DNA of 32,000 nucleotides, from NCBI GenBank assembly GCA_016432445.1, contig CP066689.1, positions 870,001 to 902,000 of the forward strand, given 5' to 3'. Source of the stretch: Candidatus Saccharimonadota bacterium (lineage in GTDB: Bacteria; Patescibacteriota; Microgenomatia; UBA1406; GWC2-37-13). The notes beneath the pieces are model-generated. The model saw only the letters and a program-made list of their open reading frames with translations. It had not been told where the DNA came from and made no database searches. A program made the translations under genes and the position numbers. Below are positions 7,975-26,276 of the stretch, piece after piece. How positions within the stretch are numbered: position 1 is the first letter of the stretch; each line of letters opens with the position of its first letter.

Positions 7975-9390
7975 CTATTTGGAGATTTTATAAATAGTAA
8001 TCTTATCAGTTGAATAAATTTTGTTATCTATAAATTTTTCTTTACCAAATTCCTTTGCCTCCCAGCTGTCAAGATTATTAATATTAAAGTTTGGAATTTC
8101 AGAAAAAATATATAGAACTTGTGATTTTTTATACTCAAACTCTAAATTAGGAATAAATCCAGCTTTCCTTAAAAAAAAACGATACTCAAATCCATTAGGT
8201 GATAGTAAATCCGGATTAGTGATCTGAATTACATTAAAAGAGTCCTCTTTTTTGATAATATTGTTTTGAATCAGCGCTTGAGCCGCTTTTTCATAAGTTT
8301 GAACTGATCTCCATGTAGGCTGGTAATAAGATTTAGGGAAATAAATAATCTCAAACAGCAATATAGGTATAAGCACTAAAGTTAACTTACTTTTTATCAA
8401 AACAAAAATAAAAACAAAAAAAATAAAAAAAGTCACTGAAAAAAGATAATGGCTAATAAACTGATACCTTAAAGTTAAAACTAAAAGAAGTAAACTTAAT
8501 AGTGAACAAATTACCAGTATCCTTTCTTTCTTCATGTTCTTTTTGATTAAAACAATCGCGCTTCCTAACAATATCATTAACAACGGATTAATAAGTATTA
8601 ATTCTTTTATCTGTGAAGATAGAAAAAAAATATTATCTATAATGTTTTTCTTACCAGTTAAACCTCCAGGAATATTCTTATTGTTAACCCAATATAAATA
8701 AGATTTATCAATGAAAGTATTTTTAAGCATTATAAAGTTATGTTTTATTTCAAAAAGAATAAAATAAGAAAAAGGAGCAAACAAACCGATAAAAAAGTAA
8801 ACAATAATTCTTTTATGTTTTAAAAGATAAAAAATAAACAAAGTAACAAATGGAACAATGAGAAGATTAACCAGATGAAAAGTAGCTATAATACCAAAAC
8901 CTATACCTATGAAAAATAGCTGTTTTTTTGTCTTTATCTCTGTGAAAAAAATATATGTTAAAAGAATCATCAGAAAGGGAAGATACGAAAAGGCATTACT
9001 TGGGTTTCTTGAAGCAGAAAGATAAAAGGGAAGGAACACAAATACTAGTGAAACTAAAACTGATTTTCGTAAAGATAAAATTGCGCTTATTTTTTTAAAT
9101 AAATAGCCTATGGCTGCTGCAAACAGGAAAGCATTAAAGTATAGAAGGGCATTAATATTTAAATTAGTAATATACAATATTGGGGTAAAAAGGTAGTAAT
9201 AAAATGGCCCTGAATAGATACCGCCAAAAGTCAGCTTTGGACCAATTAAAGTAATTTTTCCCTGGGTAATTTTTAAAATATCATAAAGATCCCGGGCAAA
9301 ATCAGGATTAAATACAAAAGAGGAGGGGAGTTTGTAGGAGAAAATCAGAAATGAAATAATAATAACCCCCGCTCCTACAATAAATCTCAT
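7975..9390 (-). CDS. Polytopic membrane protein, probable GT-C-type glycosyltransferase
   Basis: 471 aa with many TM segments followed by a soluble C-terminal ~110 aa. Located in the glycosylation cluster. Confidence 0.45.
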   Translation of the reverse strand: MRFIVGAGVIIISFLIFSYKLPSSFVFNPDFARDLYDILKITQGKITLIGPKLTFGGIYSGPFYYYLFTPILYITNLNINALLYFNAFLFAAAIGYLFKKISAILSLRKSVLVSLVFVFLPFYLSASRNPSNAFSYLPFLMILLTYIFFTEIKTKKQLFFIGIGFGIIATFHLVNLLIVPFVTLFIFYLLKHKRIIVYFFIGLFAPFSYFILFEIKHNFIMLKNTFIDKSYLYWVNNKNIPGGLTGKKNIIDNIFFLSSQIKELILINPLLMILLGSAIVLIKKNMKKERILVICSLLSLLLLVLTLRYQFISHYLFSVTFFIFFVFIFVLIKSKLTLVLIPILLFEIIYFPKSYYQPTWRSVQTYEKAAQALIQNNIIKKEDSFNVIQITNPDLLSPNGFEYRFFLRKAGFIPNLEFEYKKSQVLYIFSEIPNFNINNLDSWEAKEFGKEKFIDNKIYSTDKITIYKISK

Positions 9391-9396
9391 TAGTCA

Positions 9397-9402
9397 ATTA
9401 TA
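9397..9402 (-). promoter_or_regulatory. -10 hexamer TATAAT, 6 nt upstream of the ATG at 9390
   Basis: The minus strand reads ctaTATAATtgactaATG. Confidence 0.35.
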
Positions 9403-9440
9403 GTAGATTTAATTTTAATGAGCCGGAGACGCAAATTATT

Positions 9441-9455
9441 TTGAACTAATCCTGT
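9441..9455 (-). repeat. Degenerate copy (12/15) of the tRNA-Gly 5' segment
   Basis: The minus strand reads acaGGATTAGTTcAA, against tRNA-Gly GCGGGATTAGTTTAA. It lies about 105 nt downstream of the truncated GIY-YIG ORF in the same orientation. Confidence 0.3.
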
Positions 9456-9560
9456 TTGATTACTTATCTCATTTTAATGATCTTATGGAAATGTATTAAG
9501 CTTGGGAAATTATAAAAAAAGGACAATTACTAAAAGATATCGCAAAGAAAGCAAGGAGTA

Positions 9561-9734
9561 CTACTTAAGTTTTTCGAAATATTCTTCCTTAAAAAGTAAT
9601 TTGAATGGTGCTCGATATTTAGTTGATTTTGACCTACCTGAGTTATGTTGTTCAAATCGTCTTTCAAAATTATCAGTATAACCCACATAGGTTTTTTTGT
9701 CCTTCAGACTTTGGAGGACATAAACGATAAACAT
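9561..9734 (-). pseudogene. GIY-YIG nuclease minigene, C-terminally truncated (57 codons, below the ORF-track cutoff)
   Basis: Translates to MFIVYVLQSLKDKKTYVGYTDNFERRFEQHNSGRSKSTKYRAPFKLLFKEEYFEKLK*. The VYVLQSLKDK stretch matches the 19279 copy. It stops before the conserved C-terminal helix region. Confidence 0.6.
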
Positions 9735-9743
9735 ATATTGTAA

Positions 9744-9782
9744 GGAGCGGGCCGCCCGCCCTTTGGGCGAGGCGAGCCTCGC
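9744..9782 (-). other. GC-rich hairpin pair preceding the truncated GIY-YIG ORF
   Basis: Minus strand: GCGAGG-ctcg-CCTCGC, then GGGCGGG-cgg-CCCGCTC. Sharply GC-rich in an AT-rich background. Confidence 0.45.
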
Positions 9783-9806
9783 TCTTTTTTGTGAAACAAA
9801 AAAGAG
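9782..9806 (-). other. Perfect 11-bp A/T hairpin abutting the tRNA-Gly 3' end
   Basis: CTCTTTTTTGT-ttc-ACAAAAAAGAG. No U-tract follows it, so it is not a canonical terminator. Confidence 0.3.
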
Positions 9807-9875
9807 CGGGATAGGGGAATCGGACCCCTGCCGAAAGATTGGAAATCTTCCGTTCTACCATTAAACTAATCCCGC
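9805..9875 (-). tRNA. tRNA-Gly (anticodon UCC)
   Basis: Manual cloverleaf: acceptor GCGGGAT/ATCCCGC, D stem GTTT/GAAC, anticodon stem GAAGA/TCTTT with loop TTTCCAA, T arm AGGGG-TCCGATT-CCCCT, discriminator T. No encoded CCA. Confidence 0.9.
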
Positions 9876-10129
9876 AGACTGTTCACTAATCTTCTTTTTA
9901 AATAACCTCTCCCAAAACCTGTTTTTAATTGTTTCTCTCTTATCAGTGCATCTGTTTTATTTAAACAGGCTTCGTAATAGACTAAATTAATTTCCGAAAA
10001 CTTTTTAGTTGTTTTAACTTCTTTATTAAGATGTTCTTTATATCTGTTTTTTAAATCTTTACATGAACCTATATAAAATTCATTATTTATCTGTTCATAC
10101 TTACAAAGCAAAACGTACACATAAAACAT
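9866..10129 (-). CDS. Single-domain GIY-YIG nuclease (87 aa)
   Basis: MFYVYVL...FYIGSCKDLKNRYKEH...YYE...REKQLK matches the GIY-(10-11)-YIG, R and E motifs. The last codons CTG CGG GAT TAG are nt -1 to +10 of tRNA-Gly. Confidence 0.8.
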   Translation of the reverse strand: MFYVYVLLCKYEQINNEFYIGSCKDLKNRYKEHLNKEVKTTKKFSEINLVYYEACLNKTDALIREKQLKTGFGRGYLKRRLVNSLRD

Positions 10130-10143
10130 AAACTCATGTTACT

Positions 10144-10170
10144 CCTTACTTTATATTCTGGCAAGTAAGG
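10144..10170 (-). promoter_or_regulatory. 8-bp hairpin CCTTACTT/AAGTAAGG overlapping the AAGGAG ribosome-binding site of the GIY-YIG ORF
   Basis: The minus strand reads CCTTACTTgccagaatataAAGTAAGGAG. The 3' arm contains most of the SD sequence. Confidence 0.3.
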
Positions 10171-10178
10171 AAACGTTC

Positions 10179-10239
10179 TTCGCCGAAAGCTAAAGCATTC
10201 TGGCGGACCCGCCTTAATGAGCGCAGCACTTTAGGCGGA
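10179..10239 (-). other. 61-nt GC-rich twin-hairpin leader (core GCGGGTCCGC)
   Basis: Sequence TCCGCCTAAAG...TTAAGGCGGG then TCCGCCAGAATG...TTTCGGCGAA. Organisation parallels 19207-19264. Confidence 0.5.
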
Positions 10240-10259
10240 TACCATTAAACTAATCCCGC
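10240..10259 (-). repeat. Exact 20-nt duplicate of tRNA-Gly nt 1-20 (GCGGGATTAGTTTAATGGTA)
   Basis: Identical to 9856-9875. The match ends in the D-loop region. Confidence 0.9.
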
Positions 10260-10271
10260 ATGCGGTATTAA

Positions 10272-10280
10272 ATTATATCA
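10272..10280 (-). promoter_or_regulatory. Extended -10 box TGATATAAT upstream of the tRNA-Gly 5' fragment
   Basis: The minus strand reads tttTGATATAATttaataccgcatGCGGG. It lies 12 nt before the fragment. Confidence 0.45.
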
Positions 10281-10295
10281 AAAAACTTGAGGATT

Positions 10296-11039
10296 TTAAG
10301 TTTTTTTTAAAAAAAGTTCTTGGCTTTTAATCAGATCTGAAGGGCTATTAACCCCAATCCCAACTTCCTCAAACGGTACTTTAAAACCGATTACTCTCCG
10401 ACCATCAGTAACTGCCATCTTTATTAAACTGTTAAGGTAATATTCTCCAGTTACTGGAGATTTTTTAATTCTGCCGACAAAATCCTTTAAAAATTGGTAG
10501 TTAAAACAATATAAGGCGGCATTAAGTTCAGTTATCTTCCTCTGATCAACCGTCGCATCTTTTTGTTCAACACTGTCGATTATTTCATAGTTATTATTTC
10601 TAATAATCCTTCCCCAAGCTAACTCATCAGGTTTTGCGTGCTCGGTAGTTATCATTGTTACCGCAGGATGATTATCTTTATGCATTTCAATCAAGTTCTC
10701 AATCGTCTTTTTTGAATAAAACATCATATGGTCGCCATGCCCAACTAAAACACTCTCAGGAGAATAAGAAAATAATGCTTCAATTCCAACCTTAACCGCA
10801 TTTCCTGTACCAACTCTTTCTTCCTGACAAGCATAAATGACATCATAACCTTTTAAACTATCCTCAATACTTTGATAAAAAGCTCCCACAACTACAACTA
10901 TTGGGTAGGAGATATCTTTAAAAAGCTCCACTCCATAAATGATCATGGGTTTACCCATAAATGGAGTAACCACTTTATTTTTTTCTTTTGATTCCATCCT
11001 TTTGCCAAGTCCCGCGGCAAGAATAATTGAAGCAATCAT
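10296..11039 (-). CDS. Sugar-phosphate nucleotidyltransferase, GlmU N-terminal (uridyltransferase) domain-like
   Basis: ILAAGLGKRM (G-rich NTP loop), GKPMI, GTGNAV and VGHGDHMMF parallel GlmU blocks. The ATG at 11039 (MIASII..) is preferred over the TTG at 11054, which overlaps galE. Confidence 0.65.
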   Translation of the reverse strand: MIASIILAAGLGKRMESKEKNKVVTPFMGKPMIIYGVELFKDISYPIVVVVGAFYQSIEDSLKGYDVIYACQEERVGTGNAVKVGIEALFSYSPESVLVGHGDHMMFYSKKTIENLIEMHKDNHPAVTMITTEHAKPDELAWGRIIRNNNYEIIDSVEQKDATVDQRKITELNAALYCFNYQFLKDFVGRIKKSPVTGEYYLNSLIKMAVTDGRRVIGFKVPFEEVGIGVNSPSDLIKSQELFLKKT

Positions 11040-14013: not shown

Positions 14014-14050
14014 AGTCCAAAATATAAATGTTAAAAAAGTTTGTCATTTG

Positions 14051-15505
14051 TCATTTAGATTTTGGATTTTTCTTGTAAACTACCAATCCGTCTTGATCAT
14101 GAATTTTTTTGAAACGGTTATCCTTAACTAACTTTTCATATACTGGTATAAGCTCTTCCTTCTCCGGATAATTATATATCTCTGTGGGCCTTATTACAAT
14201 GAAATCCGCTAAAACATATCTGTCAGAAAAAGTATAAAAATATCTTCGTGAAGTAAAATGAGGCGCTAGCTGACCAGTGGATGAAACTTTTATTTTTTCG
14301 TCTTTTAATGAATCTTTCCAATATTCAAGCTGTTTATATTCTTTTTGAGGATATTTAAATGGATGAATCTCCTGGCTCAGGGAATAGGGGAGAGGCCCCT
14401 TAAAATAAGCAAACACTAGGGTTGAAATGATTATAATTGTTATAACTATTATAAAATTTATACGGATAAGTTTTCTTGCTCCATAGATTGCTGCAATAAA
14501 AACAAAAGGCTGAATTACTGCTGTGTAATGAAAGACTATGCTTCTCATAGCCCAGCTCTTGGATAACAGATTGATAGCCCACTCTGGAAGAGAAATTAAT
14601 AATTCTAAAGGAGCAAAAATTGAAATAAATCCTAAAGGTCCCAACATAAATAAGAGATAACGGAAGGTATCAATATGAAATATATATTTTGTTAAGCTTG
14701 AAGGATTGTTAAATATGCCAATCATAACTTTTAATGGAGAATCTCCAAAATCATTGTAATAGCTTAATGCAAAATGATTGCTTCCACGAAAATAAGGAAT
14801 AATTACAAATATAGATAAAATAAACCATAATACGCTTAAGGCAATAACAGTTATTGGAAACCAATGTCTTTTAGTTACTCCCATTCTTAGTAAAGCGTAA
14901 GCTCCGAAAAAGGCCGTAGTTAAACCTACCTGCTCTTTGGAAAGAAGACTTAAGATAAGAAACAAAAGACTTAATTTATAGCGTTTTACTAACCAAAAAT
15001 AAAACATAAAAATAATAAAAGACGTCACTAAAGCTACTGCATGAAACTCATACAGGTTAACCCTTTGAAGCGGGGGATAGAGAAGATAACTTAAGGAAAA
15101 TACCAAAGATAAAAGATCTTTATACTTATTTTTACCAAAAACTATTTGAGCGATTTTATAGATACCAAATGCTCCTAAAGCTATTGCCGCAGTTTGAATA
15201 ACAAGAAGAGTCTCAGGACCGGAATAAATAAAATAAAATGGAGCCAGTAAAGCCAGAAGAATATCATTATGAATAGCCATCCTTTTAATCTGCTCTGAGC
15301 CAAATGGATTAGTCAACTCTAAAAATCTTGACCAATCCCAAGAGGCGATGGCTTGGTAGGTGTTATAAACGGTCTGATGCATTATCCCTAAATCAAAATA
15401 AGAAGCATACAGCGTTTGAAAACGGAGAATTGTAAAGTAGGAAAAATAAACCGCATAAGCTCCTATAAAAAACCACAAAATAATTTGATATTTGGATTTT
15501 GACAT
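14051..15505 (-). CDS. DUF2079-like polytopic membrane protein (possible GT-C-type enzyme)
   Basis: 484 aa. The YFDLGIMHQ motif after TM1 resembles the DUF2079 FDLGIFDQ signature recalled from memory. Many TM segments plus a soluble C-terminus. Confidence 0.5.
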   Translation of the reverse strand: MSKSKYQIILWFFIGAYAVYFSYFTILRFQTLYASYFDLGIMHQTVYNTYQAIASWDWSRFLELTNPFGSEQIKRMAIHNDILLALLAPFYFIYSGPETLLVIQTAAIALGAFGIYKIAQIVFGKNKYKDLLSLVFSLSYLLYPPLQRVNLYEFHAVALVTSFIIFMFYFWLVKRYKLSLLFLILSLLSKEQVGLTTAFFGAYALLRMGVTKRHWFPITVIALSVLWFILSIFVIIPYFRGSNHFALSYYNDFGDSPLKVMIGIFNNPSSLTKYIFHIDTFRYLLFMLGPLGFISIFAPLELLISLPEWAINLLSKSWAMRSIVFHYTAVIQPFVFIAAIYGARKLIRINFIIVITIIIISTLVFAYFKGPLPYSLSQEIHPFKYPQKEYKQLEYWKDSLKDEKIKVSSTGQLAPHFTSRRYFYTFSDRYVLADFIVIRPTEIYNYPEKEELIPVYEKLVKDNRFKKIHDQDGLVVYKKNPKSK

Positions 15506-15513
15506 TTGGATTT
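15481..15513. repeat. Right copy of the 33-bp inverted repeat, containing the start codon and first 8 codons of the 14051-15505 gene
   Basis: See 13981-14013. Confidence 0.9.
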
Positions 15514-15516
15514 TAA

Positions 15517-17718
15517 TTATTTATTTCCTGAATGAAACTTATCATGTATCTCTTTTAATCTAATATTAGTCACATGAGTATAAATTTGTGTCGTTGAGAT
15601 ATTTTTATGTCCCAGCATTTCTTGAACCGAACGCAGGTCAGCACCGTGAGTCAGCAAATCAGTAGCGTACGAATTGTGACTCAAGATACCATTAGTTATC
15701 AAATTATGATTCTTCTCTACAAAAAAATCATAAACAGTATGTTGGGATGATCCTAACTTTTTCTTAGTTTTTACTTTTAACCATTTGATATTGTTGGCAT
15801 TAGCCAGAAGATAATAAGCTTTATATTCCTTATCTGAAATAAGATTGAGTTGCCTGAACCCTTTAATAAGGCTCATAAAAGTGTCTTTTTGAGGTAAAAT
15901 TTTTGCGACATAACGGGAAACATGCTTAATGCCGAATTTTCTTTCGAAAATAGGACAATATTGAACTTTATTTTCTTTTGCTTTGGTAATGCATTTTTGA
16001 ATTATATCCTGAAATGGTAATTTCTCTTCAAAACGGGTTTCTTTTAAACTAAAATCATTAACTTTCATTGTCGGGATATGATTGATAAAATTATCAATAC
16101 TTTGTTTATCAATAATCACCAATCCATAAATATTACCCGTGAAGGATTTTCCATTATGAGGCAGGATTACTCTTCGAGTCCTACCCTCTAAATGAGCATC
16201 TATTCCGAAATAAAGGAATAACATCTGGATTTGTTCAAGAAGGATTTTTGAGGAGGAAAATAATCGGGGAGAAGTAGTTAGCCCTTCAGCATCATAAAAA
16301 CCGGCAATAAAATTGGTAATTTCTTCGCCTGTTGCGGAAAAAAGCTTTTGAGGAACTGTTTTTTTATTTGATAGTTCAATCATCCCGAGATCCTCGAAAA
16401 AACGATTTAGCTCTGTATTATAAAAATATAATTGATACGAATTACTGTTCTCGTTTTTCTTAATATGAGACTTTATCTTTAATGTTTTCTCGATTAATTG
16501 CTGGTAAAACTCTAAATAATCTAAATTCTTATCATAGATTCTGATTACTCTTCCGGATAAATTAACAATGCCATCCCCCAGGACATAACCAATAATCCGC
16601 CATAACGGAGGATTTAATATTTTTTTGCCTTGGTGAAATATTTTTTTAACGGCAACTATATAATCGCTAACTTTAAGATCCTTAGCTTTTTTTTCAACAA
16701 TACTGTCTTTTGAAAAAACAAATATCCTATGCTCGCCGGAACATTTCAATTCATAACCATCGGCTTTTATCTCATACAGGTATGTATTATGTTGACTTTT
16801 TTGGATGACTTTATCTTTTTCCACCTTAAGAGATTTTGTATTGAAAGAATAAATATCTTTGCGCGCAGAATAAAATAATTCTCTGGCGGTGAGGATAGAA
16901 TCATTAACGGCGATTAATGTTTGCGGATGTAAACAATGCCTTAATACGTGAGGACCGATACGGAATAAGATACCGGCTTTTTTTCTATACTTATCAATAG
17001 TTCTTTCAATTGAACGCACGGATAATCTAAGCTTATTTTCGGTTAAACCTTCCTCAGGACGCGGTCCGGAGTATCTGATAAACAACGGCTTATAAGGATC
17101 ATCTCTTTTTTGAAGATACATTGAAAGCCAATCAGTGGCTTTTTTGGATAAAAATACCACCCTGGCTTTGCCTCCTTTTCCAATCACTCCAAACTCGCCT
17201 GAGTCCAAATTAATCTGGTCACGGTTAAGACCGGCAAGCTCTGACACACGGAGTCCGGTTGAGAAGAGTACCTCAAGCAAAGCTCTGTCTCTTAAGCCAA
17301 TTATTTCTGAGTAATCAACGGCGGCAAATAATTTTTCTAAATCTTCAGGAGATAAAAACTTAATTGACCGGTCACTCTGTTTTCCCAGTTCGATAACTTC
17401 AGGCGCAATTACTTTAACTTTTTGCTTTATTAAAAACCTAAAAAAAGAACGGAGGGCCACTAAAAAATAATTTTGAGTTTGCCTTTTTAAATCACCCTTG
17501 TGAGGATTTTTATATTGGTGGGAAAGATAAAGACGGAAGTTTCTTATGATATTGTCATCAATCTTTTCAACCTCAAAATCTTCAAGCTTCATTGTGTCCA
17601 ATAGCCAAGTTTGAAAAAAATTAAGGTAGTAACCATACATGCGGACCGTTTTTACTGAAAGATTTCGATCAAGCTCGCAGTATTCCAAAAAACGTAAAAC
17701 CGCCTCTTTTATCCCCAT
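15517..17718 (-). CDS. XerC/XerD-type tyrosine recombinase interrupted by an intein (312-aa extein + 421-aa intein)
   Basis: N-terminal SAM-like domain. Box [13 protein letters not shown]. Box II HVLRH|...|SYATDLL split by the insert. [14 protein letters not shown] carries the catalytic Tyr. Confidence 0.85.
15673..16935 (-). mobile_element. Intein with LAGLIDADG homing-endonuclease domain (Cys262-Asn682 of the recombinase ORF)
   Basis: It starts [10 protein letters not shown] (block A). SGEHRIFV is block-B-like. LAGLIDADG motifs [11 protein letters not shown] and [10 protein letters not shown]. It ends [21 protein letters not shown], followed by Ser as the +1 residue. Confidence 0.85.
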
Positions 17719-18363: not shown

Positions 18364-18365
18364 TG

Positions 18366-18446
18366 TGCCAGAGGAGGGAGTTGAACCCTCACGCCTTACG
18401 GCACAGGATCCTAAATCCTGCGTGTATGCCATTTCACCACTCTGGC
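18366..18446 (-). tRNA. tRNA-Leu (anticodon UAG), class II with long variable arm
   Basis: Manual fold: acceptor GCCAGAG/CTCTGGC, anticodon stem CAGGA/TCCTG with loop TTTAGGA, variable arm TGCCGTAAGGCGT, T arm GAGGG-TTCAACT-CCCTC, discriminator A. Confidence 0.9.
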
Positions 18447-19146: not shown

Positions 19147-19189
19147 TAGGTTGTAAGAACAGTGTAAGAAAAGGCTAAAGATTTCATCA

Positions 19190-19206
19190 GGAGGGGTCGC
19201 ATAGTG
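19190..19206 (+). repeat. Exact 17-nt duplicate of tRNA-Ser nt 1-17 (GGAGGGGTCGCATAGTG)
   Basis: Identical to 19539-19555. The match ends inside the D-loop. Confidence 0.9.
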
Positions 19207-19264
19207 CCCGCTCAGAAGCAAGCTTTGAGCGGGTCCGCTCACGAACATAAGTGAGCTGAGCGGA
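19207..19264 (+). other. 58-nt GC-rich twin-hairpin leader (core GCGGGTCCGC)
   Basis: CCCGCTCA-gaagcaagctt-TGAGCGGG then TCCGCTCA-cgaacataagtgagc-TGAGCGGA. Each stem is 8 bp. Confidence 0.55.
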
Positions 19265-19278
19265 GACAAATAACAAAT

Positions 19279-19539
19279 ATGTTCTATGTATACGTATTAC
19301 AAAGTTTGAAAGATAAAAGATTCTATATAGGTTTTAGTGCGGATTTAAAAAAAAGAGTTAAAGATCATAACGAAGGTAGAGTTGTAAGCACAAAGAATAG
19401 AAGGCCATTAGATTTAATCTATTATGAAGCTTATAAGTTTGAACAACAGGCACGTAAACAGGAATTATTTTATAAAACAGGACAAGGAAGACGAGTCTTG
19501 AAAACACGTCTTACAGGTAATGAAATACTAGGAAAATAG
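19279..19539 (+). CDS. Single-domain GIY-YIG nuclease (86 aa)
   Basis: MFYVYVLQSLKDKRFYIGFSADLKKRVKDHN...YYEAY...Q..RKQE matches the GIY-YIG motifs. The final G of the TAG stop codon is nt 1 of tRNA-Ser. Confidence 0.8.
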   Translation: MFYVYVLQSLKDKRFYIGFSADLKKRVKDHNEGRVVSTKNRRPLDLIYYEAYKFEQQARKQELFYKTGQGRRVLKTRLTGNEILGK

Positions 19540-19625
19540 GAGGGGTCGCATAGTGGACTAGTGCGTACGCCTGGAAAGCGTATGTGGTCGCAAGACTACC
19601 GCGGGTTCGAATCCCGCCCTCTCCG
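19539..19625 (+). tRNA. tRNA-Ser (anticodon GGA), class II
   Basis: Manual fold: acceptor GGAGGGG/CCTCTCC (one G-U pair), anticodon stem TACGC/GCGTA with loop CTGGAAA, variable arm GTGGTC-gcaa-GACTAC, T arm GCGGG-TTCGAAT-CCCGC, discriminator G. Confidence 0.9.
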
Positions 19626-19632
19626 CACTTTT

Positions 19633-24646: not shown

Positions 24647-24709
24647 ATCCAAATGTCAAAACTCAAATGTCAAATATTTTTTGTCATTTGAAATTTGGAT
24701 TTTGGATTT
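24645..24709. terminator. Large imperfect palindrome between convergent genes (probable bidirectional terminator, REP-like family)
   Basis: aaatccaaa...tcaaatgtcaa-(7 nt: atatttt)-ttgtcatttga...tttggattt. The outer 9 bp are perfect and the inner stem matches 10/11. Confidence 0.45.
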
Positions 24710-26276
24710 ATTTTAATTTTAGGTAGTGCAGATAATAACCGCCGCCCACATCAGCTATTTTCTTTTCATAATTTTGCCACAACTCATCAGTGTAAATATC
24801 ATCCTCCCTTTCATTAATTACTTTATTAAATGGTCTGGCAAACCGCGGATCGTCAAAGTCAAGTTTAAAATCCAGCACCTGGATATTGCCAAGTAATAAA
24901 AAGGTAGGCTTTTGAGAAAGAATATATGGCCCGTCATGCTTCTCATGTCCAGCCGCGCCTTTTCCCAAATCAACCTTTTTATGGGAAATATATTTATTAG
25001 TCAACCCTAGCATATCGTAAATATACCGGTCAGAATAATAACCTACAGCTCCTATAGGCACCAAAGCTATAGTTTCATTTGGTTTAGCGTTTTCTTTTAA
25101 CCATTTACCAACATAAGTCCAGCGCGGGATTTCATAATTTTTTTGATCAAGATAAATTTGGTACTGATTACCAACCAAAGGCTGCGCAAAAGCTCTATAA
25201 ATTAGTATGGCAGCAAAACTAAACATAAAAATATATTTAATGTATGAATTTGGAAACACGTCTTCAATTTTTGCTAAAAAAAATGCAAGAAGAACCGTAA
25301 AGTAGGGGAGAGCGGGCAATAAAAACCGGTACATTGGTAATCCGTCACCTCCAACCAGAACAGTTTCCGTCACAATAGTAAAAATAAACAATAAAGCTAA
25401 CAAAACTGTTCTTGTTTTATTAATATAACCCCAGATAATAAGAACAATAAAAAATAGAATAAAACTGTAATTGAGGAAAAAATCAAATGTATACCTTAAA
25501 CCACGAAGATAAATATCTAAATTCGCTCCCACTTTAGCATAAAAAGTATTTGGCAATAGTTGTCCATACAAACTGTACCTTATAAGAAAAGATGAGGCTA
25601 TAACGAACGTAAATGGCAAAAGATAATAAAATATTAAATTTTTTAGCTTAACTTTAGCTTTAAAAACAAACCATAGCGTTGCCAAAACAGGAACGAATAA
25701 TCCTTCAAGCCGGGTTAAAATTACAAGAATTGAAATAATTGAGAAAATAAATAATTTTTGCTTATCAAATTTTGAGTTCAAGCTCAAAAAAACATAGTTT
25801 AATAAAAGAAAAAAAGAATACATCGTTATCTCCAACCCTCCTAAAGACCAAACCGCAATAATATTGGAAGAGGAAATGAATAAAAGAGCCAGAAAACGAG
25901 ATACTGATGAAATTTTTATTTTTTTTAAAAAAAAGTAAAGAAGAATTATTTGTAAACTTCCAAATAATAGCCCCACATTTCTTCCTATCCAGACTATATC
26001 AAACCCTAATCTCCCCAATAACCCTAATAACCCAAACCATAAAACACTGGTAAACCCCTCTACATATTCACCAGCGTTATAAACCGGCCCTAAGCCGGTA
26101 AGAAAATTTTTAACATAACGGAAAGTAATAAAAGCATCATCACTTAAAAAATTAAGAGAGTAAGAAAAGAAAACAAAAATATACAAACAAACGGCTAAAA
26201 TAATTATGTCTTTCCCAAACTCAGGCGCGTTTAGATACTCATATATTTTGGCTAAATTTGATCTAACTACTTTCAT
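24708..26276 (-). CDS. Polytopic membrane protein, probable GT-C-type glycosyltransferase
   Basis: 522 aa. A DDAFITFRY acidic motif follows TM1, with about 12 TM segments and a soluble C-terminal domain. Confidence 0.45.
   Translation of the reverse strand: MKVVRSNLAKIYEYLNAPEFGKDIIILAVCLYIFVFFSYSLNFLSDDAFITFRYVKNFLTGLGPVYNAGEYVEGFTSVLWFGLLGLLGRLGFDIVWIGRNVGLLFGSLQIILLYFFLKKIKISSVSRFLALLFISSSNIIAVWSLGGLEITMYSFFLLLNYVFLSLNSKFDKQKLFIFSIISILVILTRLEGLFVPVLATLWFVFKAKVKLKNLIFYYLLPFTFVIASSFLIRYSLYGQLLPNTFYAKVGANLDIYLRGLRYTFDFFLNYSFILFFIVLIIWGYINKTRTVLLALLFIFTIVTETVLVGGDGLPMYRFLLPALPYFTVLLAFFLAKIEDVFPNSYIKYIFMFSFAAILIYRAFAQPLVGNQYQIYLDQKNYEIPRWTYVGKWLKENAKPNETIALVPIGAVGYYSDRYIYDMLGLTNKYISHKKVDLGKGAAGHEKHDGPYILSQKPTFLLLGNIQVLDFKLDFDDPRFARPFNKVINEREDDIYTDELWQNYEKKIADVGGGYYLHYLKLK

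Follow-up and report, generated by a model that had tools for sequence, protein, structure and literature searches.

At the tRNA-Gly(UCC) gene of a 32,000-nt stretch of DNA (the window), a gene for a minimal GIY-YIG nuclease is enclosed between an interrupted copy of the tRNA 5' end and the intact tRNA, with a conserved twin hairpin (TH) placed exactly at the point of interruption. We consider it probable that this arrangement represents a selfish element that invades tRNA genes, composed of the TH and the gene for a minimal Slx1-like nuclease, and spread by homing-type break repair. The element family is widespread and apparently undescribed: the full-text literature, in a coverage that leaves most subscription journals outside, yielded no description of such an architecture. 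As read from its sequence, the window carries two complete copies of the element and one decayed copy. The copy at tRNA-Gly, ~380 bp long, comprises the following features:

10272..10299, minus strand: promoter-like site (TTAAAA, 16-nt spacer, extended -10 TGaTATAAT)
10240..10260, minus strand: orphan copy of the tRNA-Gly(UCC) 5' end (nt -1 to 20, stopping within the D loop), identical over 21 nt to 9856-9876 in direct orientation
10179..10239, minus strand: TH module; covariance-model match of 63.8 bits, E about 4e-11
10169..10178, minus strand: relic of the interrupted tRNA-Gly copy, from comparison with the tRNA sequence GGTA/GAACG-GAAGA-TTTCC
10142..10170, minus strand: local hairpin CCTTACTT..AAGTAAGG of the MFE fold, overlapping the AAGGAG ribosome-binding site (10147-10142)
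9866..10129, minus strand: ORF for a mini GIY-YIG nuclease, 87 aa, single domain, Slx1-like/UPF0213; Pfam PF01541, E=1.2e-12
9805..9875, minus strand: intact tRNA-Gly(UCC), which shares 10 nt with the ORF; Rfam tRNA, 67.3 bits; ARAGORN, 9804-9875

Both the tRNA and the GIY-YIG ORF ending inside it had been called correctly in the original prediction, and the last codons of the ORF (CTG CGG GAT TAG) coincide with tRNA nt -2 to 10, the TAG being nt 8-10. The orphan copy aligns without gaps to tRNA nt 1-20 up to the hairpins. The repeat is exact, as first reported, and its length is 21 rather than 20 nt because the T preceding tRNA nt 1 is also included; by our own estimate from 4^21, the chance expectation of an exact 21-mer pair in 32 kb is ~1e-4. 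Upstream of the orphan copy, a consensus scan of 9350-10450 placed the extended -10 TGATATAAT at 10280-10272 with TTAAAA 16 nt further upstream. This site scored highest in the scanned region, with 10/12 matches plus the TG, a measure of consensus match and not of a mapped start. It lies 12 nt from the orphan copy as read from the sequence, and the scan recorded no comparable site directly before tRNA-Gly nt 1, in keeping with the earlier view that the sole promoter-like box stands upstream of the orphan fragment. The site is probably the promoter of the resident tRNA, now driving the whole unit.

The 61-nt GC-rich twin hairpin was recovered with exactly the predicted boundaries by a covariance model built from TH copies of other genomes. 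It interrupts the tRNA copy after the A of the D loop, immediately before the 3' strand of the D stem begins (the 21/22 class). Taken alone, its folding energy is unremarkable (z = -1.4); the support for it comes from comparison across copies and not from the fold of a single sequence. Beyond the TH, GAACG (10178-10174) corresponds to the D-stem 3' strand plus G26 and TTTCC (10173-10169) to the anticodon loop, with the 5' anticodon-stem strand (GAAGA) deleted; 5 nt of the tRNA continue after the TH. The suggestion that these motifs are a relic of the tRNA body is borne out by the family-wide pattern, in which the right TH flank resumes the tRNA at the position after the break. The hairpin noted over the ribosome-binding site is also present in the MFE fold, where it half-buries AAGGAG (10144-10170). 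It is specific to the Gly copy of the window and absent in relatives such as locus L001 (L numbers denote related loci), and we accordingly rejected it as a conserved regulator; the distance from TH to ATG in relatives is 6-31 nt.

The remaining two copies in the window are represented by these features:

9735..9803, minus strand: A/T hairpin and, after it, a long GC-rich one, immediately 3' of tRNA-Gly; fold -35.8 kcal/mol, z = -6.1
9561..9734, minus strand: truncated GIY-YIG ORF of another subfamily, 57 aa; PF01541, E=1.4e-12, covering only profile positions 2-58 of 78
19189..19206, plus strand: orphan copy of the tRNA-Ser(GGA) 5' end (nt -1 to 17, likewise stopping within the D loop), identical over 18 nt to 19538-19555
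19207..19264, plus strand: Ser-type twin hairpin with CCGCTCA..TGAGCGG stems; fold -27.7 kcal/mol, z = -5.0, 0/200 shuffles as good
19279..19539, plus strand: GIY-YIG ORF of the Ser-associated subfamily, 86 aa; the last base of its TAG stop is tRNA nt 1
19539..19626, plus strand: intact tRNA-Ser(GGA); ARAGORN, Rfam 55 bits

The hairpins directly 3' of tRNA-Gly are the leader of a second, different GIY-YIG element, and their motif GAGCGAGGCTCGCC also occurs 3' of tRNA-Gly in L007. The truncated ORF behind them probably belongs to an element that entered at the 3' end of the tRNA and is now decaying. At tRNA-Ser, the ORF product shares 44% identity with that of the Gly locus, and the hairpin gives a weak match (20 bits) to the Gly-type covariance model and is also present in L095 and L097. 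Homologs of the Ser subfamily lay upstream of tRNA-Ser in 4/4 contexts looked at.

We then compared 80 related loci from CPR/Patescibacteria genomes, which share a common plan: tRNA nt 1 to a break point p, the TH, 4-12 further tRNA nucleotides, a mini GIY-YIG ORF without a stop codon of its own, and the intact tRNA. Among the 77 loci with a complete ORF, a same-strand tRNA lies within 200 nt past the stop codon in 71, and the ORF ends inside the tRNA in 57; the overlap is exactly 10 nt in 41 (41/71 of those with a tRNA), and the stop is TAG in 51 of the 57 ORFs ending inside the tRNA. In L009 and L048, the two clear exceptions with available sequence, the TH follows the intact 3' end of a tRNA-Pro. 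In ~53/66 loci, nt 1 to p of the local tRNA directly precede the TH without gaps, the duplicated segment beginning at tRNA nt 1 within 0-4 nt, and the right flank resumes at p+1 for 4-10 nt. Together with the tRNA-Ser copy and the split residents described below, these figures uphold the proposal of a cassette that entered tRNA-Gly within its D-loop-coding part and regenerated an intact tRNA behind itself.

The D-loop position holds for the Gly locus of the window, but not family-wide. Values of p cluster at 12-14, 17-22, and 34-35, and TH sites fall mostly in loop-coding sequence (18-22, 35/36, T loop), with others at 12/13 in the D stem and at the tRNA 3' end. In L007, L095, and L097, it is the 3' part of the tRNA that is replaced, and elsewhere mostly the 5' part. 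The partner is tRNA-Gly in 58/71 loci, and a single protein subfamily can be found at tRNAs for Gly(CCC/UCC/GCC), Val, Ile, Asp, Glu, Thr, Gln, Arg, and Asn. A genome labelled Parcubacteria, in which the adjacent tRNA-Gly is very different, has an ORF with 77% identity to that of the window tRNA-Gly locus. Tandem or nested copies occur in L001, L032, L033, and L041. Two simpler identities for the upstream repeat were rejected. Duplication of a target site in the classical way, by a short staggered cut, does not fit a repeat whose length (10-39 nt) tracks the break point and whose start is always at tRNA nt 1, nor the lack of a duplication flanking the TH itself. Likewise, the upstream fragment and hairpins do not make up a whole tRNA-like gene: when the flanks of the TH were joined, a tRNA resulted in 1/80 loci, three further cases being THs that follow an intact tRNA-Pro.

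The original prediction had treated the twin hairpin as a mere leader, a description that has to be abandoned: the module is conserved, its precise insertion marks where the tRNA is broken, and the tRNA sequence runs on contiguously at its two sides with no target-site duplication. In an alignment of 69 copies, 94.9% of cells are paired and 21/23 pairs show compensatory changes. The module is dyad-symmetric with covariation restricted to Watson-Crick pairs; G-U pairs amount to ~1% on either strand, folding energy is equal on both strands, and covariance-model scores are likewise similar. Its two palindromes are imperfect, with a conserved A.A mismatch in the first hairpin, a T.T mismatch in the second, and a one-base bulge. 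The pairing and the strand symmetry suggest that the module acts as DNA rather than RNA, and a purely RNA-level structure was rejected in view of the lack of both G-U enrichment and strand asymmetry. Searches of the window and 10 loci against Rfam 15, at gathering and at permissive thresholds (E up to 1-10), returned only tRNA and nothing over the TH, which led us to discard known ribozymes, introns, and leaders as its identity.

It is very improbable that the system works through RNA, whether with the TH as an intron-like insertion, by joining of split tRNA halves, or with a guide transcript that marks a tRNA gene for the nuclease. Such a mechanism would accommodate the location of most break points in single-stranded parts of the folded tRNA, the start of the duplicated segment at the RNase P site, the mutual complementarity still retained by the split halves in L028, L047, and L005, and the presence of target-identical sequence on both sides of the TH, as for a guide. 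Yet an intact, uninterrupted tRNA stands beside the ORF in 71/77 loci, so that splicing is not needed, and the upstream copies end 4 to 12 nt after p and cannot yield a tRNA. The lack of a match to any known ribozyme or intron family and the strand-symmetric, Watson-Crick-only covariation also speak against it, and bacteria are not known to possess a tRNA splicing endonuclease.

A DNA-level alternative that we regard as unlikely, though deserving more weight than an RNA mechanism, is hairpin-guided transposition of single-stranded DNA in the manner of IS200/IS605 or REP/BIME-RAYT. Here, the TH would be the element end read as folded single-stranded DNA, the GIY-YIG protein would replace the HUH transposase as the nicking enzyme, the targets would be loops of a DNA cloverleaf at a fork or R-loop, and the tRNA duplications would be by-products of repair. 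Consistent with this are the precise TH insertion without target duplication, mostly at cloverleaf loops or the 3' end (18/19, 21/22, 35/36, T loop, 73/74) and at sites that share no sequence motif, the structure equally good on both strands, and the presence of a TH at both cargo ends in L028, L047, L005, L079, and L050. The mismatched, bulged palindromes also resemble the hairpins read by single-strand transposases. Further likenesses to REP/BIME (REPIN)-RAYT and IS200/IS605 systems lie in the inverted arrangement of imperfect palindromes with conserved mismatches and in the linkage of hairpins to a small nuclease or transposase gene. Those systems, however, use HUH tyrosine transposases, target short motifs, and regenerate no tRNA, whereas the sole ORF of the present unit is the GIY-YIG gene, with neither a recombinase nor an HUH transposase. 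GIY-YIG enzymes hydrolyze DNA and form no covalent intermediate, and therefore cannot perform strand transfer themselves. The two ends are not differentiated into left and right, each carrying a full twin module. REPs occur as tens to hundreds of scattered copies, unlike the TH: both matches in the window lie beside ORFs, strong matches in the 80 loci lie within ~600 nt of an ORF except L013:1-46, and this is at most the one strong match in ~190 kb of ORF-distal flanks. No solo TH was seen within an otherwise intact tRNA in the 80 loci, the joined construct of L051 being borderline.

A selfish element is supported by loci in which a resident tRNA has been split. In L047 and L005, and less decisively in L028, a hairpin-ORF-tRNA cassette with a differing tRNA of its own lies between the two parts of a resident tRNA-Gly. 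The outer 5' and 3' parts of all three join to a valid tRNA-Gly(CCC) with 7/7 acceptor pairing, whereas the acceptor of the inner tRNA differs and pairs with only 3/7 (L047), 4/7 (L005), and 6/7 (L028). Read at the sequence level, the split residents of L047 and L005 provide direct evidence for invasion with a replacement tRNA, with L028 a weaker case. By our own reading, the inner TH flanks of L028 fit the inner tRNA slightly better (9 versus 7 of 11 and 8 versus 7 of 9 positions), a pattern that gap repair from a donor locus would give. In its fullest form, the element brings along a complete tRNA plus another TH, and the resident tRNA is split into two halves. Its cargo is then an entire replacement tRNA with an additional hairpin module, and not only the replacement 5' segment originally proposed.

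Occupancy also varies between genomes. In L089, the closest syntenic genome, the same tRNA-Gly(UCC) is occupied by a different GIY-YIG subfamily. A homing gene would be expected to leave both occupied and empty forms of one site in related genomes; the split residents (more weakly that of L028) and the different subfamilies at one tRNA support this only indirectly. Neither an empty orthologous site nor a presence/absence polymorphism appeared among strain assemblies and the contexts of neighbor-gene homologs. Over 910 nt, five other assemblies of the same strain show no difference; homologs of the flanking NTP-transferase gene reach only 55-60% identity at best, and L087 and L090 are non-syntenic. 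A metagenome scan with this neighboring NTP-transferase returned one distant locus, and an exact-protein look-up only identical same-strain copies.

The fixation of the element in all assemblies of this strain would also suit a host-kept operon, in which a Slx1-like protein with a cellular role (e.g., in repair or tRNA/RNA metabolism) is co-transcribed with the tRNA, the hairpins belong to an RNA leader that serves stability, processing, or the control of translation, and the partial tRNAs are debris of local duplication. Conservation of the ORF-tRNA junction across many CPR classes, mostly at tRNA-Gly, points in the same direction, as do the clear constraint on catalytic residues, the overlap of one window hairpin with the ribosome-binding site, and the wide distribution of standalone Slx1-like proteins in prokaryotes, with reported methyltransferase fusions (PMC1564403). 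We nevertheless judge this explanation improbable. Three paralogous copies of different subfamilies, one of them decaying, lie within 10 kb of a ~1.1 Mb genome; resident tRNAs are split by the cassette; syntenic genomes differ in which subfamily sits at a given tRNA; and copies may be nested or in tandem. The ~1% of G-U pairs on both strands gives no RNA-strand signature, and between elements at different tRNAs the TH is better conserved at the DNA level (~88% identity, our own count from the alignment) than the ORF (~60%).

The 87-aa protein matches PF01541 with 48.3 bits (cut-off 22.6) over profile positions 1-74 of 78. Y5, Y19, G21, R29, H33, E53, and E65 are invariant among 24 sequences, and by analogy the invariant residues include the putative metal-ligand Glu. 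Profile matches to PDB entries comprise 1zg2 (3.7e-7), 1ywl (2.8e-5), Slx1 (0.04), and I-TevI (0.05). An AF2 model (pLDDT 90.5) displays three strands and helices, and its top structural matches are all GIY-YIG proteins: UPF0213 BH0048, At-HIGLE (TM 0.67, rmsd 2.2), the UvrC N-terminal domain, and Slx1. Foldseek assigned weak E-values (0.02-0.7), which is normal for a query this short (87 aa). Pfam and the AF2 model give the catalytic domain only, with no DNA-binding module of the I-TevI/Seg type, and the NCBIfam group I intron endonuclease model aligns only over its first 40 positions and below threshold. The model and profiles identify the protein as a predicted nuclease of minimal Slx1-like (UPF0213) form with no auxiliary domain, nearer to 1zg2/1ywl and Slx1 than to I-TevI or UvrC; the proteins that its fold resembles, UPF0213, At-HIGLE, and Slx1, are structure-selective nucleases. 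The proposal of a GIY-YIG nuclease in place of an integrase was right as to the domain; given the minimal Slx1-like form without a DNA-binding domain, it is not a classical sequence-specific homing endonuclease. A phage origin or vector was rejected, as phage and viral collections are nearly empty of relatives: a tblastn search of 50,697 phage records gave no match to the protein, and 2.9 M viral contigs yielded a single relative, 43% identical and lacking both tRNA and hairpin.

On the homing-type reading that we favor, transcription of the unit would start at the promoter of the resident tRNA, ahead of the orphan fragment, and RNase P would free the tRNA from the 3' end of the transcript. 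With the ORF stop inside the tRNA, this cleavage would strip the stop from the mRNA and could thereby limit nuclease expression. The intact tRNA directly after the ORF keeps tRNA function. The nuclease would break a naive tRNA gene and double-strand-break repair would spread the element, the donor tRNA 5' and 3' parts that flank the cassette acting as homology arms and everything between them being copied in. Lacking a DNA-binding domain, the nuclease most likely reads DNA structure and not a long sequence; candidate targets are a hairpin or cloverleaf extruded from the tRNA gene or the TH itself, which would be the cis-acting DNA site of the system. Destruction of the resident tRNA would leave the host dependent on the element tRNA, which overlaps the ORF. 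The empty form would consist of the promoter followed by the intact tRNA, for example ...TGATATAATTTAATACCGCATGCGGGATTAGTTTAATGGTAGAACGG....

Several observations count against homing. The intact tRNA is identical around p to the interrupted copy and no sequence-based immunity is visible, so that a nuclease cutting naive tRNA genes should also cut its own tRNA. A single domain of 87 aa has no evident means of target recognition. The use of several break points by one subfamily is unlike a sequence-specific homing endonuclease, and homing leaves de novo TH insertion unexplained. The bias toward tRNA-Gly (58/71) could reflect old vertical inheritance, contrary to a selfish reading. Reasoning alone led us to reject Campbell-type circle integration and cleavage at the TH center, neither of which can give two complete THs at a TH-free target. 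As a tentative further reading, less probable than homing-type spread but still worth considering, the element could represent a new class of structure-guided mobile DNA: a ~85-aa Slx1-like nuclease and a TH of four half-sites would insert at loop-coding tRNA positions, recognized as extruded cloverleaf or hairpin DNA and not by sequence, and the replacement tRNA, its 5' end overlapping the nuclease stop, would be essential once the resident tRNA is destroyed and so make the host dependent.

Among known systems, integrase islands and prophages likewise target tRNAs, bring a copy of the displaced segment, leave a direct tRNA repeat, and keep the gene functional. Their integration requires an att site together with a recombinase of the tyrosine or serine type, it is the 3' end that they replace, and they extend over kilobases; the present element is ~380 bp, has no recombinase, replaces the 5' end, breaks mostly at D and anticodon loops, and has a hairpin at the junction. 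tRNA introns offer another parallel, with bacterial group I introns in anticodon loops and archaeal introns at many positions, the latter reported to transpose. They share insertion at tRNA loop positions, including non-canonical ones, and the archaeal case suggests mobility between tRNAs, but here there is no match to a ribozyme or intron model, the truncated copies are unspliceable, and a separate intact tRNA supplies the function. In Allomyces atp6, a mobile mitochondrial endonuclease ORF reportedly carries a duplicate of the terminus of the invaded gene. In such fungal mitochondrial cases, as here, an endonuclease ORF invades an essential gene, a replacement piece restores function, and the displaced relic stays; they differ in having protein-coding hosts and a replaced 3' terminus, compared with a bacterial tRNA and mostly its 5' part. 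The double-hairpin elements of mitochondria, or GC clusters (Paquin et al. 2000, cited in PMC3787672), are similarly short, GC-rich, mobile in AT-rich genomes, and found at such junctions, but dispersed in many copies, unlike the strictly ORF-linked TH.

Closer in enzyme class are the free-standing GIY-YIG homing endonucleases of T-even phages, especially SegB, encoded in the T4 tRNA gene cluster, which is multi-domain and site-specific, recognizes 27 bp including the T-psi-C motif of tRNA genes, and spreads with flanking tRNA genes by break repair as neither intron nor integrase (PMC2330249). Both systems place a GIY-YIG nuclease gene among or next to tRNA genes. The element protein, in contrast, is a bare Slx1-like domain of 80-90 aa, and SegB, lying between genes, shows no tRNA interruption, partial duplication, stop overlap, or conserved hairpin module. 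By size, fold, and best matches, the element protein belongs to the standalone UPF0213 Slx1-like proteins (1zg2, 1ywl), whose description includes neither a tRNA-invading architecture nor a hairpin module. The family has been regarded as mainly vertical and of unknown or repair-related function. A 2006 phylogenomic survey recorded fusions to TrmH-like tRNA methyltransferase and COG4123 methyltransferases, and left open a parasite role for other superfamily members (PMC1564403).

Annotation pipelines should learn to recognize the orphan tRNA fragments, ORFs lacking their own stop, and hairpin-interrupted pseudo-tRNAs to which these loci give rise. The genomes of CPR/Patescibacteria are tiny and their tRNA genes are expected to be few. 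An element family that repeatedly breaks such genes, and survives by rebuilding or replacing them, would constitute a compact form of addiction at the level of a single gene and, if the reading is true, would explain the abundance of small genes annotated as 'GIY-YIG nuclease family protein' in CPR genomes, for which the profile search gives ~14,700 clusters at 50% identity. The combination of a minimal nuclease and a conserved DNA hairpin suggests targeting directed by structure rather than sequence. If confirmed, the element would rank among the smallest self-mobilizing systems known, may provide a scaffold for structure-specific DNA tools, and would assign to the standalone Slx1-like proteins of prokaryotes a definite, testable function, that of molecular parasites.

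At the tRNA-Gly(UCC) gene of the window, the original prediction placed a GIY-YIG cassette that had landed in the D-loop-coding part and regenerated an intact tRNA. Using ARAGORN, Rfam, the PF01541 profile, and repeat analysis, we recovered every part of this layout on the minus strand and in the predicted order:

10299-10272, minus strand: promoter-like site TTAAAA-16-TGaTATAAT (consensus match)
10260-10240, minus strand: orphan copy of tRNA-Gly nucleotides -1 to 20 (exact 21-mer repeat)
10239-10179, minus strand: pair of GC-rich hairpins, 61 nt (covariance model match, 63.8 bits)
10178-10169, minus strand: GAACG + TTTCC (sequence)
10170-10142, minus strand: hairpin overlapping AAGGAG (sequence)
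10129-9866, minus strand: 87-aa GIY-YIG ORF (PF01541, E=1.2e-12)
9875-9805, minus strand: intact tRNA-Gly(UCC) (ARAGORN; Rfam, 67 bits)

ARAGORN and Rfam agree on the tRNA, nucleotides 8-10 of which form the TAG stop of the ORF, and the repeat of its 5' end, put at 20 nt beforehand, is an exact 21-mer. A promoter-consensus scan bore out the claim of a sole promoter-like box before the orphan fragment: the best site of the region lies there, with no comparable site directly before the intact tRNA. The GAACG..TTTCC stretch after the twin hairpin (TH), suspected to be a relic of a tRNA body, is confirmed as one by related CPR/Patescibacteria loci fetched for comparison (denoted L001 and so on), in many of which the sequence following the TH matches the anticodon stem of the tRNA at that locus (L011, L018, and L025).

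This element design, comprising a 5' tRNA copy ending at a break point p, the TH, a few more tRNA nucleotides, a mini GIY-YIG ORF, and an intact tRNA, is not unique even within the window:

19189-19206, plus strand: orphan 18-nt copy of the tRNA-Ser(GGA) 5' end (same arrangement as the tRNA-Gly locus)
19207-19264, plus strand: Ser-type twin hairpin with CCGCTCA stems, a sequence type unlike the Gly-type (z = -5.0)
19279-19539, plus strand: 86-aa GIY-YIG ORF of another subfamily, its stop codon ending on tRNA nucleotide 1
19539-19626, plus strand: intact tRNA-Ser(GGA)
9561-9734, minus strand: third GIY-YIG ORF, truncated to 57 aa, directly past the tRNA-Gly 3' end

At the Ser locus, three further tRNA nucleotides (GAC) follow the twin hairpin. 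Ahead of the truncated ORF, the 9561-9803 segment (minus strand) contains an A/T hairpin and then a long GC one (z = -6.1). The tRNA-Leu at 18365-18446 has nothing of the kind attached. The GAGCGAGGCTCGCC motif of 9561-9803 recurs behind the tRNA-Gly of L007; ~110 nt further along, 20 nt of that tRNA's 3' end are repeated, giving a mirror-image architecture. Separately, a repeat family, TTTGTCATTTG..ATTTGGATTTT, occupies three gene boundaries of the window (14040-14074, 15491-15525, and 24680-24714) and could represent a regulatory or terminator-like motif common to them.

We examined the recurrence of this architecture with ARAGORN and scripts in 80 loci from species-representative genomes, all drawn from one scan and centred on the ORF. 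A same-strand tRNA lies within 200 nt past the stop codon in 71 of the 77 loci with a complete ORF; in 57 of these 77 the ORF ends inside the tRNA, the overlap being exactly 10 nt in 41 of the 57 and the stop being TAG (U8-A9-G10) in 51. Gly tRNAs predominate (Gly(CCC) at 42 loci, Gly(UCC) at 13, Gly(GCC) at 3), and tRNAs for Val, Ile, Asn, Asp, Glu, Thr, Gln, and Arg are found as well. Nucleotides 1 to p of the local tRNA abut the TH on its left in ~53 of 66 informative loci, p falling at 34-35 (anticodon loop) in ~28 loci, at 12-14 in ~17, and at 17-22 (D loop) in ~11, both window copies included. On the right, the tRNA resumes at p+1 for 4-10 nt. Thus, the TH has been inserted precisely into an incomplete copy of the tRNA, without target duplication. 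The duplicated segment starts at tRNA nucleotide 1 plus 0-4 nt, except in the tandem elements L032 and L027. The break point lies in the T loop in L045. In L009, L048, and L038 it lies at the 3' end of an intact tRNA-Pro, a position that requires no duplication (no tRNA follows the ORF in L009 and L048; tRNA-Gly(UCC) does in L038). Mirror-image loci, with the tRNA 3' end duplicated downstream, are L007, L095, and L097.

A TH of the same kind precedes the ORF in nearly every locus. According to a covariance model trained on 16 copies, its end mostly falls 6-31 nt short of the ATG (median near 17); the same model gave the window's Gly-type TH 63.8 bits and matched the Ser-type copy weakly (20 bits). 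In an alignment of 69 copies, standard pairs fill 94.9% of cells versus 79.6% in shuffles, and 21 of 23 pairs show both-sided changes, a signal destroyed by sliding the partners. Both hairpins retain a single bulged base and a conserved mismatch, A.A in the first and T.T in the second, and the second is the reverse-complement form of the first. By our reading of the alignment, the module comprises four half-sites in the order alpha> <beta beta> <alpha (alpha, CCGCCNAAAG; beta, CCGCC(N)NAATG). The model scores about equally on both strands, folding energies are equal, G-U pairs make up ~1% on either strand (21/1961 versus 30/1960), and an Rfam search returned no family matching the TH. Because of this covariation, dyad form, and strand equality, together with the scarcity of G-U pairs and the Rfam result, the sequences point to a DNA site, either a cruciform/hairpin or a symmetric protein-binding site, rather than a functional RNA; mechanisms acting at the RNA level are a less likely account.

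Within the ORF-centred loci of the one species-representative scan, the module does not appear to be dispersed: strong matches lie within ~600 nt of a GIY-YIG ORF, bar one at the edge of L013, and the window's only two copies both sit beside ORFs. The type of hairpin covaries with the protein subfamily and with the identity of the tRNA; in each of the four Ser-type subfamily contexts examined, the ORF precedes tRNA-Ser and the hairpins are of the CCGCTCA type. Between L050 (Val) and L070 (Ile), the TH is ~88% identical (manual alignment count) and the ORF DNA roughly 60%, with similarity stopping 2-5 nt before tRNA nucleotide 1. Another hairpin type, the single hairpin CCTGCCCGCC..GGCGGG, occurs near positions 1330-1390 of L009, L048, L010, and L055. 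It either interrupts or merges with the initial 5 nt of tRNA-Pro or of tRNA-Gly copies, its 3' arm providing the tRNA's GCGGG or CGGGG, so that acceptor sequence is used.

Close homologs of the 87-aa protein number in the hundreds, all of 80-125 aa and almost all from Patescibacteria; with clusters drawn at 50% identity, a subfamily profile search retrieved 14,732 of them at E<=1e-3 and 2,369 at the stricter E<=1e-10. Among solved structures, the UPF0213 proteins BH0048 and EF2693 are closest in sequence, with Slx1 next. The AlphaFold model (pLDDT 90.5) best matches UPF0213, At-HIGLE, Slx1, and the UvrC N-terminal domain, superposing on the catalytic domain of At-HIGLE, a Slx1-lineage Holliday-junction resolvase, with TM 0.67 and rmsd 2.2 A. 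The active site is conserved, with Y5, Y19, G21, R29, H33, E53, and E65 invariant. Based on these sequence neighbors, model matches, and residues, the protein is predicted to be a nuclease of the Slx1-like branch (PMC1564403) reduced to a single domain, lacking the DNA-binding domain of I-TevI-like and Seg-like enzymes. A 2006 survey found prokaryotic Slx1-like domains fused to or in operons with COG4123 methyltransferases and a TrmH-like tRNA methyltransferase (PMC1564403); given the tRNA association at the present loci, these links may reflect insertion beside tRNA-related genes or real tRNA-structure binding. L087 encodes a 93-aa GIY-YIG protein of yet another subfamily (1150-1530) between the AT-richer hairpins TCATCCCGAACTTGTTTCGGGATC and GATGCTGAAACAAGTTCAGCATGAC, with no tRNA nearby and a 23S_rRNA_IVP protein gene ~1 kb downstream, past an EamA gene.

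In ~15 loci, the intact tRNA is followed by a short tRNA fragment, a TH, and the remainder of the tRNA through its 3' end. When joined, the outer 5' copy and outer 3' part make a valid tRNA-Gly(CCC) in L047 and L005, with L028 a less decisive case; their acceptor strands pair 7/7 in all three, while the inner intact tRNA has a different acceptor stem, with which they pair 3/7, 4/7, and 6/7, respectively. Thus, a cassette consisting of a TH, the ORF, a tRNA of its own, and another TH split the resident tRNA gene at 35/36, less decisively so for L028. Nested or tandem copies in L001, L032, L033, and L041 indicate repeated hits. In L032 (1857-2070), the unit of tRNA fragment, twin hairpin, and tRNA 3' half is tandemly duplicated with a period of about 130 nt, suggesting that partial units can amplify locally as repeats. 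The only syntenic relative found, L089, retains the flanking genes (neighbor protein 59% identical) and has the same tRNA-Gly(UCC) occupied by a different GIY-YIG subfamily, arranged as tRNA nucleotides 1-25, a small hairpin, and a 79-aa ORF with the last base of its stop codon at tRNA nucleotide 1. An operon of ORF and tRNA kept by the host is, beside these split and reoccupied genes, a less likely reading. Among the related loci and assemblies examined, we found no empty site or polymorphism, and five other assemblies are identical over 910 nt.

We infer that the element would be transcribed from the resident tRNA promoter, that RNase P would release the tRNA and thereby also strip the stop codon from the mRNA, and that the nuclease may recognize DNA structure rather than sequence. 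Spread would proceed by repair of nuclease-induced breaks, the tRNA parts serving as homology arms. A TH with arms of about 8 nt marks each junction. In L028, the inner TH flanks fit the inner tRNA slightly better than the outer (9 versus 7 of 11 and 8 versus 7 of 9, by manual reading), as double-strand-gap repair from a donor locus would produce. If the carried tRNA then recombined with the 3' half left behind, the outcome would be the common arrangement, also present in the window, of 5' copy, TH, ORF, and tRNA. The main rival is hairpin-guided single-strand transposition.

Among the systems closest in logic are mitochondrial mobile ORFs, which bring a replacement gene terminus, integrase-borne tRNA-targeting islands, and REP/BIME-RAYT systems. 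The same holds for mitochondrial double-hairpin elements, as cited in PMC3787672, and for free-standing GIY-YIG homing genes like T4 segB, which recognizes the tRNA T-psi-C motif (PMC2330249). None of these, as so described, parallels the four-way combination of a bare Slx1-like domain, a linked symmetric twin hairpin, within-tRNA break points, and tRNA regeneration or replacement with an overlapping stop codon; the literature searched, incomplete in coverage, yielded no prior description of the architecture. That the element represents a distinct class of structure-guided mobile DNA is a tentative proposal, less likely than not but with a real chance of being correct; we classify it with the homing-type selfish nuclease elements.
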